Sequence record: ON528735
DNA: 64,000 nucleotides
Source: Shigella phage ESh25
Reading direction: 5' to 3' (one strand)
Position 1 is the stretch's first letter; each line of letters begins with the position of its first letter. The position numbers and the translations under genes are program-made. This document shows, in pieces, positions 4,010-27,208 of this stretch. Under the pieces are notes generated by a model. That model had not been told where the DNA came from. It made no database searches and saw only the letters and a program-made list of their open reading frames with translations.

Positions 4010-5720
4010 TAACCTTAATTGGTTTGTTGGTGTTGTTGAAGATAGAATGGACCCATTAAAATTAGGTCGTGTTCGTGTTCGTGTGGTTGGTCTACATCCA
4101 CCTCAAAGAGCACAAGGCGATGTAATGGGTATTCCAACTGAAAAATTACCATGGATGTCAGTTATTCAACCTATAACTTCTGCAGCGATGTCAGGAATTG
4201 GAGGTTCTGTTACAGGGCCAGTAGAAGGAACTAGAGTTTATGGTCATTTTTTAGACAAATGGAAAACTAATGGAATTGTCCTTGGCACGTATGGTGGAAT
4301 AGTTCGCGAAAAACCGAATAGACTTGAAGGATTTTCTGATCCAACTGGGCAATATCCTAGACGTTTAGGAAATGATACGAACGTATTAAACCAAGGCGGA
4401 GAAGTAGGATATGATTCCTCTTCTAACGTTATTCAAGATAGTAACTTAGACACCGCAATAAATCCCGATGATAGACCACTATCAGAGATTCCAACCGATG
4501 ATAATCCAAATATGTCAATGGCTGAAATGCTTCGCCGTGATGAAGGATTAAGATTAAAAGTTTATTGGGATACCGAAGGATATCCGACAATTGGTATTGG
4601 TCATCTTATCATGAAGCAGCCAGTTCGTGATATGGCTCAAATTAATAAAGTTTTATCAAAACAAGTTGGTCGTGAAATTACAGGAAATCCAGGTTCTATT
4701 ACAATGGAAGAGGCGACGACTTTATTTGAGCGTGATTTGGCTGATATGCAACGTGACATTAAATCACATTCTAAAGTAGGACCAGTCTGGCAAGCTGTCA
4801 ACCGTTCTCGTCAAATGGCGTTAGAAAATATGGCATTTCAGATGGGTGTTGGTGGTGTAGCTAAATTTAACACAATGTTAACTGCTATGTTAGCAGGAGA
4901 TTGGGAAAAAGCGTATAAAGCCGGTCGTGATTCATTGTGGTATCAACAAACAAAGGGTCGTGCATCCCGTGTTACCATGATTATTCTTACGGGAAATTTG
5001 GAATCATATGGTGTTGAAGTGAAAACACCAGCTAGGTCTTTATCTGCAATGGCTGCTACTGTAGCTAAATCTTCTGACCCTGCTGATCCTCCTATTCCAA
5101 ATGACTCGAGAATTTTATTCAAAGAACCAGTTTCTTCATATAAAGGTGAGTATCCTTATGTGCATACGATGGAAACTGAAAGTGGACATATCCAAGAATT
5201 TGATGATACCCCTGGGCAAGAACGATACAGATTAGTTCATCCAACTGGAACTTATGAAGAAGTATCACCGTCAGGAAGAAGAACAAGAAAAACTGTTGAT
5301 AATTTGTATGATATAACAAATGCTGATGGTAATTTTTTGGTAGCCGGTGATAAAAAGACTAACGTCGGTGGATCAGAAATTTATTACAACATGGATAATC
5401 GTTTACATCAAATCGATGGAAGCAATACAATATTTGTACGTGGCGATGAAACTAAGACGGTTGAAGGTAATGGAACTATCCTAGTTAAAGGTAATGTTAC
5501 TATTGTAGTTGAAGGTAATGCTGACATTACAGTTAAAGGAGATGCTACCACTTTAGTTGAAGGTAATCAAACTAATACAGTAAATGGAAATCTTTCTTGG
5601 AAAGTTGCTGGGACAGTTGATTGGGACGTTGGTGGTGATTGGACAGAAAAAATGGCATCTATGAGTTCTATTTCATCTGGTCAATACACAATTGATGGAT
5701 CGAGGATTGACATTGGCTAA
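3993..5720 (+). CDS. 5: gp5 baseplate hub / tail lysozyme (cell-puncturing device)
   Basis: 575 aa; central T4-lysozyme-like domain (YWDTEGYPTIGIGHLI); C-terminal VxGxxxxx beta-helix repeats. Confidence 0.95.
   Translation: MEMISNNLNWFVGVVEDRMDPLKLGRVRVRVVGLHPPQRAQGDVMGIPTEKLPWMSVIQPITSAAMSGIGGSVTGPVEGTRVYGHFLDKWKTNGIVLGTYGGIVREKPNRLEGFSDPTGQYPRRLGNDTNVLNQGGEVGYDSSSNVIQDSNLDTAINPDDRPLSEIPTDDNPNMSMAEMLRRDEGLRLKVYWDTEGYPTIGIGHLIMKQPVRDMAQINKVLSKQVGREITGNPGSITMEEATTLFERDLADMQRDIKSHSKVGPVWQAVNRSRQMALENMAFQMGVGGVAKFNTMLTAMLAGDWEKAYKAGRDSLWYQQTKGRASRVTMIILTGNLESYGVEVKTPARSLSAMAATVAKSSDPADPPIPNDSRILFKEPVSSYKGEYPYVHTMETESGHIQEFDDTPGQERYRLVHPTGTYEEVSPSGRRTRKTVDNLYDITNADGNFLVAGDKKTNVGGSEIYYNMDNRLHQIDGSNTIFVRGDETKTVEGNGTILVKGNVTIVVEGNADITVKGDATTLVEGNQTNTVNGNLSWKVAGTVDWDVGGDWTEKMASMSSISSGQYTIDGSRIDIG
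5425..5640 (+). repeat. 24-nt periodic coding repeat encoding the gp5 triple beta-helix (VEGNGTIL VKGNVTIV VEGNADIT VKGDATTL VEGNQTNT)
   Basis: Octapeptide periodicity visible in the translation and as repeated gttgaaggtaat / gttaaaggtaat units. Confidence 0.7.
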
Positions 5721-5754
5721 TATACTTCCAATGAGCGCTGATTTAGGAGAATCC

Positions 5755-6249
5755 ATGGAAGGTTCTTCTATCGACGTCACCTTTACCGCTCAATTAGAAA
5801 CAGGTGAAACGTTAGTATCTATAAATATAACTAGTTACGAAGAAACTCCTGGGGTTTTAGTAGAAGAAAATCGCTTATATGGAACATATGAATCTGTGTT
5901 TGGATTTGGAGATGACGCGTTGAAATATCGTTTAAGCGATGAATTTAAAACTGCTGCTTCATGGGAAGAACTTCCTACTGATTCTGATACTCAGTTGTAT
6001 TTATGGAAAGCTCCTCAAAACCTCCAGAAGACATTCACTTACGAAGTAACATTAATATATGACTACCAAGAACAAAGTGAATCTGGAGGTTCTGGCAGTA
6101 ATTCTAGGTCATCTTCTGATACTACTGAACCGACGGATCCTCCTGCTCCAGTAAGAAAAACTCTAGTTAAAAATTACACAAAAACTATAGTTGGAAATTG
6201 GAGTCGTTGGGCTAATAAATTAAGAAGCTATGTATATGAGAGGTCATAA
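5755..6249 (+). CDS. hypothetical protein (T4 5.1 position)
   Basis: Track ORF 5692-6249 overlaps the gene 5 3' end. Start chosen at the Met preceded by TAGGAG SD (MEGSSIDV...); alternatives are 5692 and 5731. Confidence 0.55.
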
Positions 6250-6543
6250 ATGTCAGGATTGAGTTATGATAAGTGTGTTACTGCTGGCCATGAAGCGTGG
6301 CCTCCAACAGTTGTGAATGCTACGCAAAGTAAAGTATTCACTGGAGGAATTGCTGTTCTAGTAGCAGGCGATCCAATTACAGAACATACAGAAATTAAAA
6401 AGCCATATGAAACACATGGCGGAGTGACACAACCTAGAACTTCTAAGGTATATGTCACTGGAAAGAAAGCTGTTCAAATGGCTGATCCAATATCATGCGG
6501 TGATACTGTGGCTCAGGCATCATCTAAAGTATTCATTAAATAG
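6250..6543 (+). CDS. 5.4: gp5.4 PAAR-like spike tip protein
   Basis: 97 aa, small Gly/Val-rich beta protein directly after gene 5 and 5.1; T4 5.4 length and position. Confidence 0.8.
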
Positions 6544-19072: not shown

Positions 19073-20774
<1,702 letters not shown>

Positions 20775-20815
20775 TAAATATTATAAACTAATTAAAGCCC
20801 AGATTAGGAGAAATC

Positions 20816-23956
<3,141 letters not shown>

Positions 23957-23984: not shown

Positions 23985-25964
23985 ATGACTTTATTATCTC
24001 CGGGCATTGAGCTCAAAGAAACTACGGTTCAAAGCACCGTGGTTAATAACTCTACTGGTACAGCAGCTTTGGCCGGTAAATTCCAGTGGGGTCCTGCTTT
24101 TCAGATTAAACAGGTTACAAATGAAGTAGATTTAGTTAATACTTTTGGTCAACCAACCGCTGAAACTGCTGACTATTTTATGTCTGCGATGAATTTCTTA
24201 CAGTACGGAAATGACTTACGAGTAGTTCGTGCTGTTGATAGAGATACCGCTAAAAACTCATCTCCGATTGCTGGTAATATTGAATACACAATTTCTACCC
24301 CAGGTAGTAACTATGCAGTTGGAGATAAAATCACGGTCAAATATGTTTCAGATGATATTGAAACTGAAGGTAAAATTACTGAAGTAGACGCAGATGGAAA
24401 AATTAAGAAAATTAATATTCCTACTGCAAAAATTATCGCTAAAGCTAAAGAAGTCGGTGAATATCCGGAATTAGGTTCTAACTGGACTGCGGAAATTTCT
24501 TCGTCTTCCTCTGGTTTAGCTGCAGTAATAACTCTTGGAAAAATTATTACTGATTCTGGTATTTTATTAGCTGAAATTGAAAATGCTGAAGCTGCTATGA
24601 CAGCGGTTGACTTTCAAGCAAATCTCGAAAAATACGGAATTCCAGGAGTAGTAGCTCTTTATCCAGGCGAATTAGGCGATAAAATTGAAATTGAAATTGT
24701 ATCTAAAGCTGACTATGCAAAAGGAGCTTCTGCATTACTCCCAATTTATCCAGGTGGTGGTACTCGTGCATCTACTGCTAAAGCAGTGTTTGGATATGGA
24801 CCACAAACTGATTCACAGTACGCTATTATAGTTCGTCGTAATGATGCTATTGTTCAAAGTGTTGTTCTTTCAACTAAGCGTGGTGAAAAAGATATTTACG
24901 ATAGTAACATCTATATCGATGACTTTTTCGCAAAAGGTGGTTCAGAATATATTTTTGCAACTGCACAAAACTGGCCAGAAGGCTTCTCTGGAATTTTAAC
25001 TCTTTCTGGTGGATTATCATCAAATGCTGAAGTAACAGCAGGAGATTTGATGGAAGCTTGGGACTTCTTTGCTGACCGTGAATCTGTAGATGTTCAACTG
25101 TTTATTGCGGGTTCTTGTGCCGGTGAATCTTTAGAAACAGCATCTACTGTCCAAAAACACGTCGTTTCAATTGGGGATGCTCGTCAAGATTGCTTAGTAT
25201 TGTGCTCACCACCACGTGAAACTGTAGTTGGAATTCCTGTAACTCGCGCTGTTGATAACTTAGTCAATTGGAGAACCGCAACAGGTTCATACACTGATAA
25301 TAACTTTAATATCAGTTCAACCTACGCAGCAATTGATGGTAACTATAAGTATCAGTATGACAAATATAATGATGTGAATCGTTGGGTTCCATTAGCAGCT
25401 GATATTGCTGGTTTATGCGCAAGAACTGATAACGTTTCTCATACTTGGATGTCTCCAGCTGGTTATAATCGTGGCCAAATTTTGAACGTTATTAAACTGG
25501 CTATTGAAACTCGCCAAGCTCAGCGCGACCGTTTATACCAAGAAGCTATTAACCCGGTAACTGGCACAGGTGGCGATGGTTACGTATTGTATGGTGATAA
25601 AACAGCTACTTCTGTTCCTTCTCCGTTTGATCGTATTAACGTTCGTCGTCTGTTTAATATGTTGAAAACTAATATCGGACGTAGTTCAAAATATCGTTTG
25701 TTCGAATTAAACAACGCGTTTACTCGTTCATCATTCCGCACAGAAACTGCCCAGTACTTACAGGGAATTAAAGCTCTCGGTGGAATTTATGAATATCGTG
25801 TAGTTTGCGATACAACAAATAACACTCCGTCAGTAATTGATAGAAATGAGTTTGTTGCAACATTCTACATCCAACCGGCTCGTAGTATAAATTATATCCA
25901 ACTTAATTTCGTCGCAACTGCTACTGGTGCAGATTTTGATGAGTTAACTGGTCTTGCAGGTTAA
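23985..25964 (+). CDS. 18: gp18 contractile tail sheath
   Basis: 659 aa, T4 gp18 length; GAGG SD; synteny. Confidence 0.95.
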   Translation: MTLLSPGIELKETTVQSTVVNNSTGTAALAGKFQWGPAFQIKQVTNEVDLVNTFGQPTAETADYFMSAMNFLQYGNDLRVVRAVDRDTAKNSSPIAGNIEYTISTPGSNYAVGDKITVKYVSDDIETEGKITEVDADGKIKKINIPTAKIIAKAKEVGEYPELGSNWTAEISSSSSGLAAVITLGKIITDSGILLAEIENAEAAMTAVDFQANLEKYGIPGVVALYPGELGDKIEIEIVSKADYAKGASALLPIYPGGGTRASTAKAVFGYGPQTDSQYAIIVRRNDAIVQSVVLSTKRGEKDIYDSNIYIDDFFAKGGSEYIFATAQNWPEGFSGILTLSGGLSSNAEVTAGDLMEAWDFFADRESVDVQLFIAGSCAGESLETASTVQKHVVSIGDARQDCLVLCSPPRETVVGIPVTRAVDNLVNWRTATGSYTDNNFNISSTYAAIDGNYKYQYDKYNDVNRWVPLAADIAGLCARTDNVSHTWMSPAGYNRGQILNVIKLAIETRQAQRDRLYQEAINPVTGTGGDGYVLYGDKTATSVPSPFDRINVRRLFNMLKTNIGRSSKYRLFELNNAFTRSSFRTETAQYLQGIKALGGIYEYRVVCDTTNNTPSVIDRNEFVATFYIQPARSINYIQLNFVATATGADFDELTGLAG

Positions 25965-25972
25965 TTGATTAT

Positions 25973-25986
25973 GGGGCTTCGGCCCC
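25973..25986 (+). terminator. hairpin GGGGC-ttcg-GCCCC immediately after gene 18
   Basis: UUCG tetraloop hairpin. The track ORF start at 25965 reads through it (translated as GLRPL), which I take to be an artefact. Confidence 0.55.
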
Positions 25987-26003
25987 TATTCTCGAGGAAA
26001 CAA

Positions 26004-26609
26004 GTGATTATTTCTAAGTTTGTTACAATAAAACCAAGAAATCATTCAAAAATGTGGTCGACAATTCTGGGATATAAAGTATCATATCATGATACAGTAT
26101 CTGTTCCAATAGAATTAATGCCAAAGAATAGTAATAAAATAGTTGACGCTAAATGTGATTTGTGTGGTACTAAATTTAGTAGAAGCATTCAACTTTTAAA
26201 TAGAACACCCACACATGCGTGTAGAAAATGTAGCATTAAACAAGTTGCTATTAAAAATTCGGAAGTTCAATCTGGAATAAGCAGACCATGGCAAAGAGGT
26301 GATAAACATCCTCGATGGACTGGCAAAAGAAAAGAGTTTGCATTATATGCTAGTAGAGTTCATTCTATAACTAAGTCAGCTAAAATAAGAAAAATCTGGT
26401 CAAAATGGCCAAATGCTGATAAAATAGGAGTGTGTGGCGTAGAAGGTGCTTACCAACTCGATCATAAAGTATCTATCAAATATGGATTTGATAATTTAAT
26501 TCCGCCGGAAATTATAGCAAGCGTAAAAAATTTAGAAATAATCACTTGGGAATCTAACCGAGAAAAGTCAAAAAGAAATAGCGTAGATCTTTGGGATTTA
26601 CTAGAATGA
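26004..26609 (+). CDS. HNH-family endonuclease, candidate free-standing homing endonuclease inserted between genes 18 and 19
   Basis: Zinc-finger-like CDLCGTKF...THACRKC followed by HNH-like YQLDHKVSIKYGFDNL...NLEIITWESNREKSKRN. Start uncertain: in-frame GTG at 26004 with GAGGAAA SD, or ATG at 26052; track ORF begins 25965. Confidence 0.65.
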   Translation: MIISKFVTIKPRNHSKMWSTILGYKVSYHDTVSVPIELMPKNSNKIVDAKCDLCGTKFSRSIQLLNRTPTHACRKCSIKQVAIKNSEVQSGISRPWQRGDKHPRWTGKRKEFALYASRVHSITKSAKIRKIWSKWPNADKIGVCGVEGAYQLDHKVSIKYGFDNLIPPEIIASVKNLEIITWESNREKSKRNSVDLWDLLE

Positions 26610-26616
26610 TTCTAAA

Positions 26617-26634
26617 GGCCTGTTTCGGCAGGCC
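26617..26634 (+). terminator. hairpin GGCCTG-tttcgg-CAGGCC after the HNH ORF
   Basis: 6-bp stem with 6-nt loop immediately 3' of the HNH stop. Confidence 0.45.
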
Positions 26635-26635
26635 A

Positions 26636-26643
26636 TATAAATA
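26636..26643 (+). promoter_or_regulatory. late promoter TATAAATA, distal copy upstream of gene 19
   Basis: Exact TATAAATA 74 nt upstream of the gene 19 ATG, immediately after the hairpin. Confidence 0.55.
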
Positions 26644-26694
26644 CACTATATCCTTAATTCTTTAATTCTATATGCCCTAGGTTAAACATAGGGA

Positions 26695-26702
26695 TATAAA
26701 TA
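26695..26702 (+). promoter_or_regulatory. late promoter TATAAATA, proximal copy for gene 19
   Basis: Exact TATAAATA 15 nt upstream of the gene 19 ATG. Confidence 0.65.
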
Positions 26703-26716
26703 CTACAGAGGCTAAT

Positions 26717-27208
26717 ATGTTTGTAGATGATGTAACACGAGCGTTTGAATCTGGTGATTTTGCTCGACCTAACTTATTCCAAGTAGAAATTTCTTATCTT
26801 GGACAAAATTTTACGTTTCAATGTAAAGCCACTGCTTTACCAGCTGGTATTGTAGAAAAAATTCCAGTCGGTTTTATGAACCGTAAAATTAACGTAGCAG
26901 GTGATCGTACATTCGATGACTGGACTGTTACAGTAATGAACGATGAGGCACATGATGCTCGCCAGAAGTTCGTTGATTGGCAAAGCATTGCTGCGGGGCA
27001 AGGAAACGAAATTACTGGTGGAAAACCTGCAGAGTATAAAAAGAGCGCTATCGTTCGTCAATATGCTCGTGACGCTAAAACAGTAACAAAAGAAATTGAA
27101 ATTAAAGGTCTGTGGCCTACTAACGTGGGTGAACTTCAATTAGATTGGGATTCAAACAATGAAATCCAAACCTTTGAAGTAACTCTCGCTCTCGATTATT
27201 GGGAATAA
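26717..27208 (+). CDS. 19: gp19 tail tube protein
   Basis: 163 aa, T4 gp19 length; follows sheath gene. Confidence 0.9.
   Translation: MFVDDVTRAFESGDFARPNLFQVEISYLGQNFTFQCKATALPAGIVEKIPVGFMNRKINVAGDRTFDDWTVTVMNDEAHDARQKFVDWQSIAAGQGNEITGGKPAEYKKSAIVRQYARDAKTVTKEIEIKGLWPTNVGELQLDWDSNNEIQTFEVTLALDYWE

Follow-up and report, generated by a model that had tools for sequence, protein, structure and literature searches.

The window analyzed here, a 64,000-nucleotide stretch of Shigella phage ESh25 (ON528735), derives from a T6-like Tequatrovirus in which the tail sheath gene (18) and the tail tube gene (19) are separated by an insert carrying an open reading frame (ORF) known from phage T6 as ORF19.1. 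We consider it probable that the inserted segment, at 25966-26608 between the sheath stop codon and a native hairpin, is a free-standing homing-endonuclease gene cassette. This reading is drawn from a precise insertion/deletion (indel), its presence or absence among relatives in three genera, two alleles sharing the same junctions, tandem copies and differing insertion points, together with patches of change in the flanks, a ratio of nonsynonymous to synonymous polymorphism (pN/pS) of 0.05-0.15 and fidelity to the sheath gene. A first-pass annotation of this DNA had likewise proposed a free-standing homing endonuclease; the comparative pattern fits that proposal, but most of the flanking signals on which it relied are native to T4 and no part of the element. 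The features of the interval, with the two genes that bound it, are:

23985-25964, plus strand: gene 18 (tail sheath), 659 aa; gp18 is 98.3% identical to that of T4
25966-26608, plus strand: inserted segment, 643 bp in place of the 7-bp ACGGTGC of T4, between TAAT and ATTCTAAAGG
25973-25986, plus strand: upstream hairpin GGGGC-TTCG-GCCCC (UUCG tetraloop), carried by the insert, 8 nt past the gene 18 stop codon
26617-26634, plus strand: downstream hairpin GGCCTG-TTTCGG-CAGGCC, native to T4 and outside the insert, 100% identical to T4
26636-26643 and 26695-26702, plus strand: two late-promoter motifs TATAAATA ahead of gene 19, located by pattern search and the same in T4
26717-27208, plus strand: gene 19 (tail tube); gp19 is 100% identical to that of T4

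The boundaries of the insert were set by pairwise alignment with T4. The order in T4 is GGTTAAT (the gene 18 stop codon plus one T), ACGGTGC and then ATTCTAAAGGCCTG, and the window rejoins this sequence at ATTCTAAAGG. As the first-pass annotation had stated, genes 18 and 19 are adjacent in T4, with a spacer of only 116 bp; no ORF occupies this place there. The ORF of about 200 aa, its CxxC...CxxC module and HNH-like string, the hairpins and the late-promoter motifs 59 nt apart were all found where they had been placed. Because the window is 100% identical to T4 from 26609 through the rest of the spacer, however, the second hairpin and both TATAAATA copies are native rather than borne by the insert, so that of the flanking elements proposed as an insertion signature only the upstream hairpin came with the insert. 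This hairpin is found in the minimum-free-energy fold and is kept in both Tequatrovirus alleles; in Roth19, AS-zj and L015 its place is taken by hairpins that are not homologous to it.

The ORF is an insertion, as had been supposed; alignments show that T4, T2 and some three quarters of the Tequatrovirus records are without it. Among Tequatrovirus-like records of the phage collection, 117 carry the insert and 382 have an intact T4-type junction; T2, like T4, belongs to the latter. The pattern recurs in other phages. In Jiaodavirus the gene is present in 39 of about 141 close records as a clean indel of approximately 686 bp, straight after the sheath stop codon and ahead of the native hairpin, and among VR26-like phages it is present in L015 and absent from L014 and L016. 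Karamvirus KMB20 carries two divergent members in tandem between its sheath and tube genes, 62% and 31% identical to the window ORF. The insertion point also differs: it lies upstream of the native hairpin and late promoter in Tequatrovirus and Jiaodavirus, and downstream of a shared TATAAATA in L015, where gene 19 begins 5 nt past the ORF. The ORF of phage Bp7 has its own TATAAATA 9 nt before the ATG.

Within Tequatrovirus, about 74 of the 117 insert-bearing records have a T6-type allele and the remainder an RB3-type allele. Both junctions, the hairpin, the Shine-Dalgarno sequence, the GTG start, the first ~7 codons and the nuclease half of the gene (at least 90% DNA identity) are common to the two. 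Between these shared parts lies an allele-specific cassette:

26026-26390, plus strand: cassette for the N-terminal domain, including the zinc finger; about 365 bp, with ~40% DNA identity between T6-type and RB3-type (unrelated)

At the protein level the N-terminal halves of the two types are 27% identical and the C-terminal halves 73% identical.

Full-length members of the family were found directly 3' of the sheath gene in all 16 contexts read, which came from Tequatrovirus (two alleles), Jiaodavirus, Dhakavirus, a VR26-like phage, Karamvirus (two copies), Ceceduovirus (Aeromonas), Emdodecavirus (Sinorhizobium) and six uncultured phages. The L037 copy lies behind a sheath gene and has no tube gene after it, so the association is with the sheath gene and not with the tube gene. 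A second locus for the family was considered and rejected, as KMB20, the sole record with members in two places, proved to hold a tandem copy at the same locus. The only relative located elsewhere was P0046, a distant one that shares the nuclease domain alone. In P0046 a DUF7487 module is fused to this nuclease domain; it is encoded on L034 and L035, phage-like contigs of up to 192 kb and 234 kb that also encode a homologue of ribosomal protein S21, and the genes just downstream of it vary between otherwise identical contigs.

Such constancy of position could also mean that ORF19.1 is an accessory nuclease that has long resided in the T4 superfamily, vertically inherited at the sheath-tube junction, beneficial to the phage (in co-infection competition or DNA processing, for instance), and repeatedly lost. 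The occupation of one locus from Tequatrovirus, Dhakavirus, Karamvirus and Jiaodavirus to Ceceduovirus, Emdodecavirus and uncultured phages would suit such a gene, as would strong purifying selection and the fact that in several phages the ORF touches or overlaps the stop codon of the sheath gene, like a member of an operon. Vertical inheritance is difficult to reconcile with the sequences themselves. Carriers of the two Tequatrovirus alleles have gp18 proteins that are 99% identical while their ORFs are only 49% identical, and the T6-type ORF is nearer to copies from other genera (59-66%) than to the RB3-type. With the swapped N-terminal cassette and the divergent tandem copies in one genome, these values indicate that the ORF phylogeny, as judged from sequence identities, is discordant with that of the host genes. 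The insertion point varies relative to the late promoter, the flanks look like conversion tracts, and most close relatives, T4 and T2 included, manage without the gene. We regard long-term residence as unlikely, and favor the homing-endonuclease cassette.

The ORF itself and the two domains of its product were located as follows, numbering residues from the GTG codon:

26004-26609, plus strand: ORF19.1 coding sequence, GTG start and TGA stop, 201 aa; zinc finger plus HNH-like nuclease
25994-25997, plus strand: Shine-Dalgarno sequence GAGG, 6 nt before the GTG, read from the sequence
26154-26231, plus strand: four-cysteine zinc finger, treble-clef-like (C51, C54, C73, C76), from conserved columns and weak DUF4379 matches
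26451-26567, plus strand: HNH-like ββα-metal core, with YQLDH (β1), N176-LEIIT (β2) and WESN185REK (α helix)

The open frame of the 18-19 interval spans 25965-26609. Within it, sequence context places the true start at GTG 26004, since GAGG lies 6 nt upstream, the alignment to PHROG 5104 begins there, and homologues start M-I-I/T there, using GTG, ATG or TTG at the same point. ORF19.1 belongs to PHROG 5104, a family without a described function; the match to the profile is full-length (E = 4.2e-82) and aligns residues 14-213 of the 214-aa frame with profile positions 1-209 of 228. Homologues reach E = 5.6e-130 which, taken with the pN/pS values, indicates a real rather than a chance ORF.

Conservation was examined in two alignments, one of 38 sequences (the query and 37 homologues) and one of 145 (the query and 144 more distant relatives). 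In the zinc finger, C51 and C54 (26154-26165) and C73 (26220-26231, together with C76) are invariant among the 38, and C76 is conserved in at least 90%. In the nuclease core, Y150, Q151, D153, H154, S157, G161, N176, L177, W182, N185, R186 and K188 are invariant among the 38, and D153, H154, N176 and N185 are conserved in at least 90% of the 145. The codons for D153-H154 lie at 26460-26465, for N176 at 26529-26531 and for N185 at 26556-26558. The spacing of the His-Asn-Asn triad is canonical, with N176 22 residues past the D-H pair and N185 a further 9 residues on. In an AlphaFold model (predicted local distance difference test score, pLDDT, 88.7), the D-H pair ends strand 150-154, N176 starts the next strand (177-181) and N185 sits in helix 182-190; the modeled C-terminal region has a ββα-metal fold, interrupted by two short helices between β1 and β2. 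From the structure prediction and the motifs, the C-terminal domain of ORF19.1 is very likely an HNH-type nuclease of a divergent subfamily, and the N-terminal zinc-finger domain is likely a DNA-recognition module.

The HNH identity put forward by the first-pass annotation is thus upheld by the motifs and the predicted fold but not by profile searches. Pfam HNH profiles gave no match to the query even at E ≤ 1, and HNH or HNH_4 was matched by 1 of the 38 and 11 of the 145 relatives, in every case below threshold (best E = 9.5e-4). PADLOC anti-phage defence profiles returned nothing at E ≤ 0.1, and a Foldseek comparison with the PDB returned nothing significant. The sole recurring weak match was DUF4379, a probable treble-clef zinc finger, over the four-cysteine region, at 16 bits for the query against a gathering cut-off of 24.5 bits; 14 of the 38 and 16 of the 145 relatives also matched it weakly (best E = 7.3e-6). 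An exhaustive profile search returned 6,945 cluster representatives at E ≤ 1e-3, 1,530 of them at E ≤ 1e-10, and some of the best 144 relatives have NUMOD3, CapR, HTH or DUF7487 modules instead of the N-terminal half.

Lack of a curated HNH match, initiation at GTG and the want of a dedicated promoter would be features of a decaying or inactive homing-endonuclease remnant that is simply carried along, and fragments of the gene do exist: one of 106 aa is annotated in phage S16, and others of 59 aa and 120 aa occur in the protein collection. All seven Tequatrovirus copies examined are intact, however, with pN/pS of 0.05-0.15, the residues for catalysis and zinc binding do not vary within the family, and at least 80% of the protein is covered in 232 of 242 phage records. 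We therefore find it very unlikely that the gene is a relic. The short versions (Salmonella phage S16, BFVD M1HDJ8, 106 aa; P0230, 59 aa, phage WL-3; P0028, 120 aa) may be frameshifted or decaying copies.

Further evidence on the homing-endonuclease reading comes from the 3' end of the sheath gene. Across gene 18, 3.9% of positions differ from T4, and the differences are concentrated in one place:

25881-25913, plus strand: dense patch of chiefly synonymous differences in gene 18 codons 633-643, peptide RSINYI(Q/T)LNFV; candidate target, immunity or co-conversion region

Here 10 of the 11 codons differ from T4, nine of them synonymously and several by two bases. At 14 differences, against 7 in the runner-up, it is denser than any other 33-nt window in 4.9 kb, and 0 of 2000 permutations reached it. 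The patch falls exactly on a nearly invariant sheath C-terminal motif, KPARSIN(Y/F)IxLNFVA, located 72-81 nt before the stop codon; on the right flank of the insert the window is identical to T4. L015 and L014 are near-identical up to ~95 nt before the sheath stop codon, after which dense synonymous change begins; at the start of gene 19, 10 of 14 codons are also changed synonymously before identity resumes; this pair also shows other divergent patches inside gene 18. Between Roth19 and KpV477, a background of 0-2 differences per 30 nt gives way, between the A-R-S codons and the stop, to successive 30-nt counts of 7, 3 and 3, with all changes in the motif codons synonymous and the right flank unchanged. 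Dense synonymous patches within ~100 nt of the sheath gene's end are seen independently in three genera, and they resemble conversion tracts flanking the insert.

The patches of the window and L015 share ATA AAT TAT ATC nnn CTT AAT TTC GT (23 of 27 nt), and each differs more from its own ORF-less congener than from the other. Residue x of the motif is Thr in all sampled ORF-less lineages, except for insert-less Tequatroviruses with the T6-type patch (Gln); 7 of 12 ORF-bearing lineages have a residue other than Thr there. When a chimeric query joining a T4-type patch to the insert was searched, the best record was at most 93% identical; as nothing exceeded 93%, the T4-type patch is present in none of the 117 insert-bearing genomes, against ~250 insert-less ones. 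The first-pass annotation had expected cleavage in the 18/19 junction of phages lacking the insert. The likely target is not simply the empty junction on these data, and the comparative signal points instead to the last ~100 nt of gene 18. A proposed rule that ORF-bearing phages always avoid TAC at the Tyr codon was contradicted by L037 and discarded.

If ORF19.1 is a homing endonuclease, its 201-aa product would bind DNA through the N-terminal zinc-finger domain and would cut or nick it at the C-terminal HNH site (D-H...N...N). Co-infecting relatives without the cassette would be attacked at a conserved sequence in or close to the sheath gene's 3' end (the last ~100 nt), or at the empty junction. 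Repair by recombination with the cassette-bearing genome would bring in the cassette along with ~100 nt of neighboring sheath sequence, and the carrier would be protected by the silent or near-silent changes in this ~100-nt stretch, by loss of the empty junction, or by both. Transcription would be by read-through from late gene 18 transcripts past the hairpin, as no consensus promoter of its own is present in Tequatrovirus. Cutting and homing are proposed by analogy with SegF, SegG and MobE, and the end of the sheath gene or the empty junction is a candidate target.

Several observations weigh against this reading. The HNH domain was not recognized in single-sequence and profile searches by Pfam, NCBIfam, PADLOC or PDB sequences, and a search of the literature found no paper or experiment on the T6 ORF19.1 protein. 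No TATAAATA was found by pattern search within or just upstream of the insert, and no promoter of the gene's own was identified in Tequatrovirus. The occurrence of every full-length member at a single locus would also fit an old, often-lost resident gene. Finally, insert-less phages carry the same patches: OES_C-3, SP21535 and FN have the T6-type patch, and T2 and EC121 the RB3-type. Since these five phages share the patches, the patch is not diagnostic of the insert, and its role as a strict immunity marker was rejected. Any of three things could explain the association of patch and insert: simple linkage across 50-85 bp, resistant alleles lacking the gene, or clean loss of the gene.

ORF19.1 expression in Tequatrovirus is probably weak and late, given the GTG start, the lack of a TATAAATA of its own and the stable UUCG hairpin after gene 18. 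The T6- and RB3-type patch creates TATAAATT at 25887-25894, which matches the late-promoter motif at 7 of 8 positions ~110 nt upstream of the GTG and is replaced by CATTAACT in T4-type phages; judged by this resemblance, TATAAATT might serve as a weak late promoter for the gene. Three other control elements were tried and rejected. Matches to a sigma-70-like promoter were at chance level (7 vs 4.4 ± 2.3). A hairpin sequestering the ribosome-binding site, as in I-TevI and MobE, was not supported, as the fold of 25955-26030 leaves the Shine-Dalgarno sequence and GTG free and is unremarkable in energy (z = -0.46). A copy of the patch near the ORF, which might act as an operator for autorepression in the style of I-TevI, gave local alignment scores at the level of shuffled sequence.

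A different function was also considered, in which ORF19.1 is not wholly selfish but a sheath-gene-specific nicking enzyme, kept throughout the T4 superfamily for a useful nick, for instance as an entry point of the gp45 clamp for late promoters; the swapped zinc-finger cassettes would then follow changes in a single conserved target, the KPARSIN(Y/F)IxLNFVA codons. We think this improbable. In a milder version, one homing-endonuclease lineage may have followed one target through Straboviridae, Emdodecavirus and uncultured relatives. According to work attributed to the Geiduschek laboratory, nicks reportedly can load the sliding clamp and enhance T4 late transcription, and the gene always adjoins the two most abundantly needed tail genes and late promoters. 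A monomeric HNH enzyme has one active site, and characterized phage HNH homing enzymes nick (PMC13096335). Still, genes 18 and 19 are expressed well without ORF19.1 in T4 and most relatives, and the ORF would itself be late and weakly expressed in Tequatrovirus. That a site-specific nickase serves the phage by loading gp45 to boost transcription of the sheath and tube genes seems to us more doubtful still.

The position of the gene also brings to mind a packaging-associated HNH partner of terminase, as in HK97-like cos phages. The neighboring genes are:

22121-23953: gene 17
27280: start of gene 20

ORF19.1 lies in this 17-18-19-20 block, with the large terminase gene two genes upstream of it. 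In T4-type phages, however, headful packaging needs only gp16/gp17; ORF19.1 can be dispensed with, as T4, T2 and 382 records show by lacking it, and it is tied to the sheath gene rather than to the terminase gene. Although HNH-terminase partnerships have been described (PMC10448857, PMC3592412), a role in packaging is the least credible of the functions considered, with hardly any chance of being correct.

Among known systems, the homing-endonuclease cassette proposed here invites comparison with T4 MobA-E. Mob proteins have an N-terminal HNH_3 domain followed by a C-terminal zinc finger (PMC10448857), and are described as nicking enzymes (PMC13096335). Like ORF19.1, MobA-E are encoded by free-standing spacer genes that vary among close relatives, combine HNH and zinc-finger modules, and are expected to co-convert their flanks (PMC2988022). 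In ORF19.1 the domain order is reversed, Pfam HNH_3 is not matched and the locus is 18/19. I-TevIII of RB3 is likewise a modular HNH and zinc-finger endonuclease of Tequatrovirus, but it is intron-encoded in nrdB and cleaves as a dimer, with its HNH residues at the N-terminus (H26, H27, N39, H48) and a pair of zinc fingers at the C-terminus (PMC1865063), whereas ORF19.1 is free-standing with one N-terminal four-cysteine finger and a C-terminal D-H...N...N site. The free-standing SegF, SegG and SegE cause localized marker exclusion, cutting a neighboring conserved gene at a distance so that the interval is co-converted (PMC2988022), as proposed for ORF19.1; they differ in belonging to the GIY-YIG catalytic family and in having been tested experimentally. 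Compared with small HNH nucleases of solved structure, namely the Gme HNH nicking endonuclease (4h9d), phage GVE2 HNH (5h0o) and Cas9 HNH, ORF19.1 has 8-19% sequence identity and two short helices between β1 and β2.

The ORF is not new as a sequence. ORF19.1 was deposited for phage T6 in 1994, annotated as probably starting at GTG, and is 99.5% identical to the window ORF. More than 200 phage records now carry it, mostly as "hypothetical protein", and a few recent ones already say HNH or homing endonuclease; the novelty implied by the first-pass annotation was overstated, as the ORF has been on record since 1994. A 2010 review of T4-family mobile elements has no entry for genes 18/19. GenBank labels disagree and are in part mistaken: the T6 copy is a "putative head morphogenesis protein" (AP018814 / NC_054907), and family members are called "holin" (SYGD1, ZCEC14) or "type II restriction endonuclease" (Roth17/19). 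The sheath gene of Roth19 is annotated as "type VI secretion system protein TssC".

An element of this kind is ordinary for T-even phages and would not surprise a specialist; its strict association with the sheath gene and its alleles with swapped domains are what set it apart. T-even phages are the model for free-standing homing endonucleases, and the catalogue of these rests on T4, which lacks this gene. The analysis gives a 30-year-old hypothetical protein a testable function and defines a large, uncurated nuclease family whose nuclease domain has no Pfam model. It also marks out a short, highly conserved piece of sequence at the sheath gene's 3' end as the likely target which, if confirmed, would explain the mosaic patches of gene 18. 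If the homing-endonuclease reading is correct, preferential inheritance of the T6 or RB3 18-19 region would be predicted in mixed infections. With their swapped recognition domains, the two alleles that occur naturally at one site would also be a handy system for the study of specificity change in these enzymes.

Other endonuclease-like genes were observed in the structural blocks of related phages. In the Enterobacter phage KMB20 (L041, OL828291), the interval 20001-22479 contains, between the tube and portal genes, a 193-aa ORF with a GIY-YIG-like N-terminus and repeated TGRKRPNQS, Seg-like in appearance; this stretch is a hot spot for endonuclease genes. Bp7 (L021, NC_019500) has an annotated HNH endonuclease between genes 19 and 20, in the interval 4269-6481, and its portal gene is annotated as two pieces, at 4908-5231 and 5237-6481. 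The uncultured contig L038 (SRR18715504) encodes a NUMOD3 protein between the terminase and sheath genes and a weak match to the I-TevI DNA-binding domain between the tube and portal genes (728-1264 and 4246-4839), so that its structural block has three endonuclease-like genes when the family member after the sheath gene is counted.

Three records labeled as Staphylococcus or Pseudomonas phages, MG010123 (SAJK-IND), PV654520 (vB_PSGBLB0006) and OR584013 (PsgM02F), contain Tequatrovirus 18-19 sequence (98%) or the RB3-type ORF, and are probably mislabeled or contaminated assemblies. Over the whole window, TATAAATA occurs 21 times against 9.7 ± 3.3 expected, with 14 copies on the plus strand, an excess that fits a late-gene block transcribed rightward.

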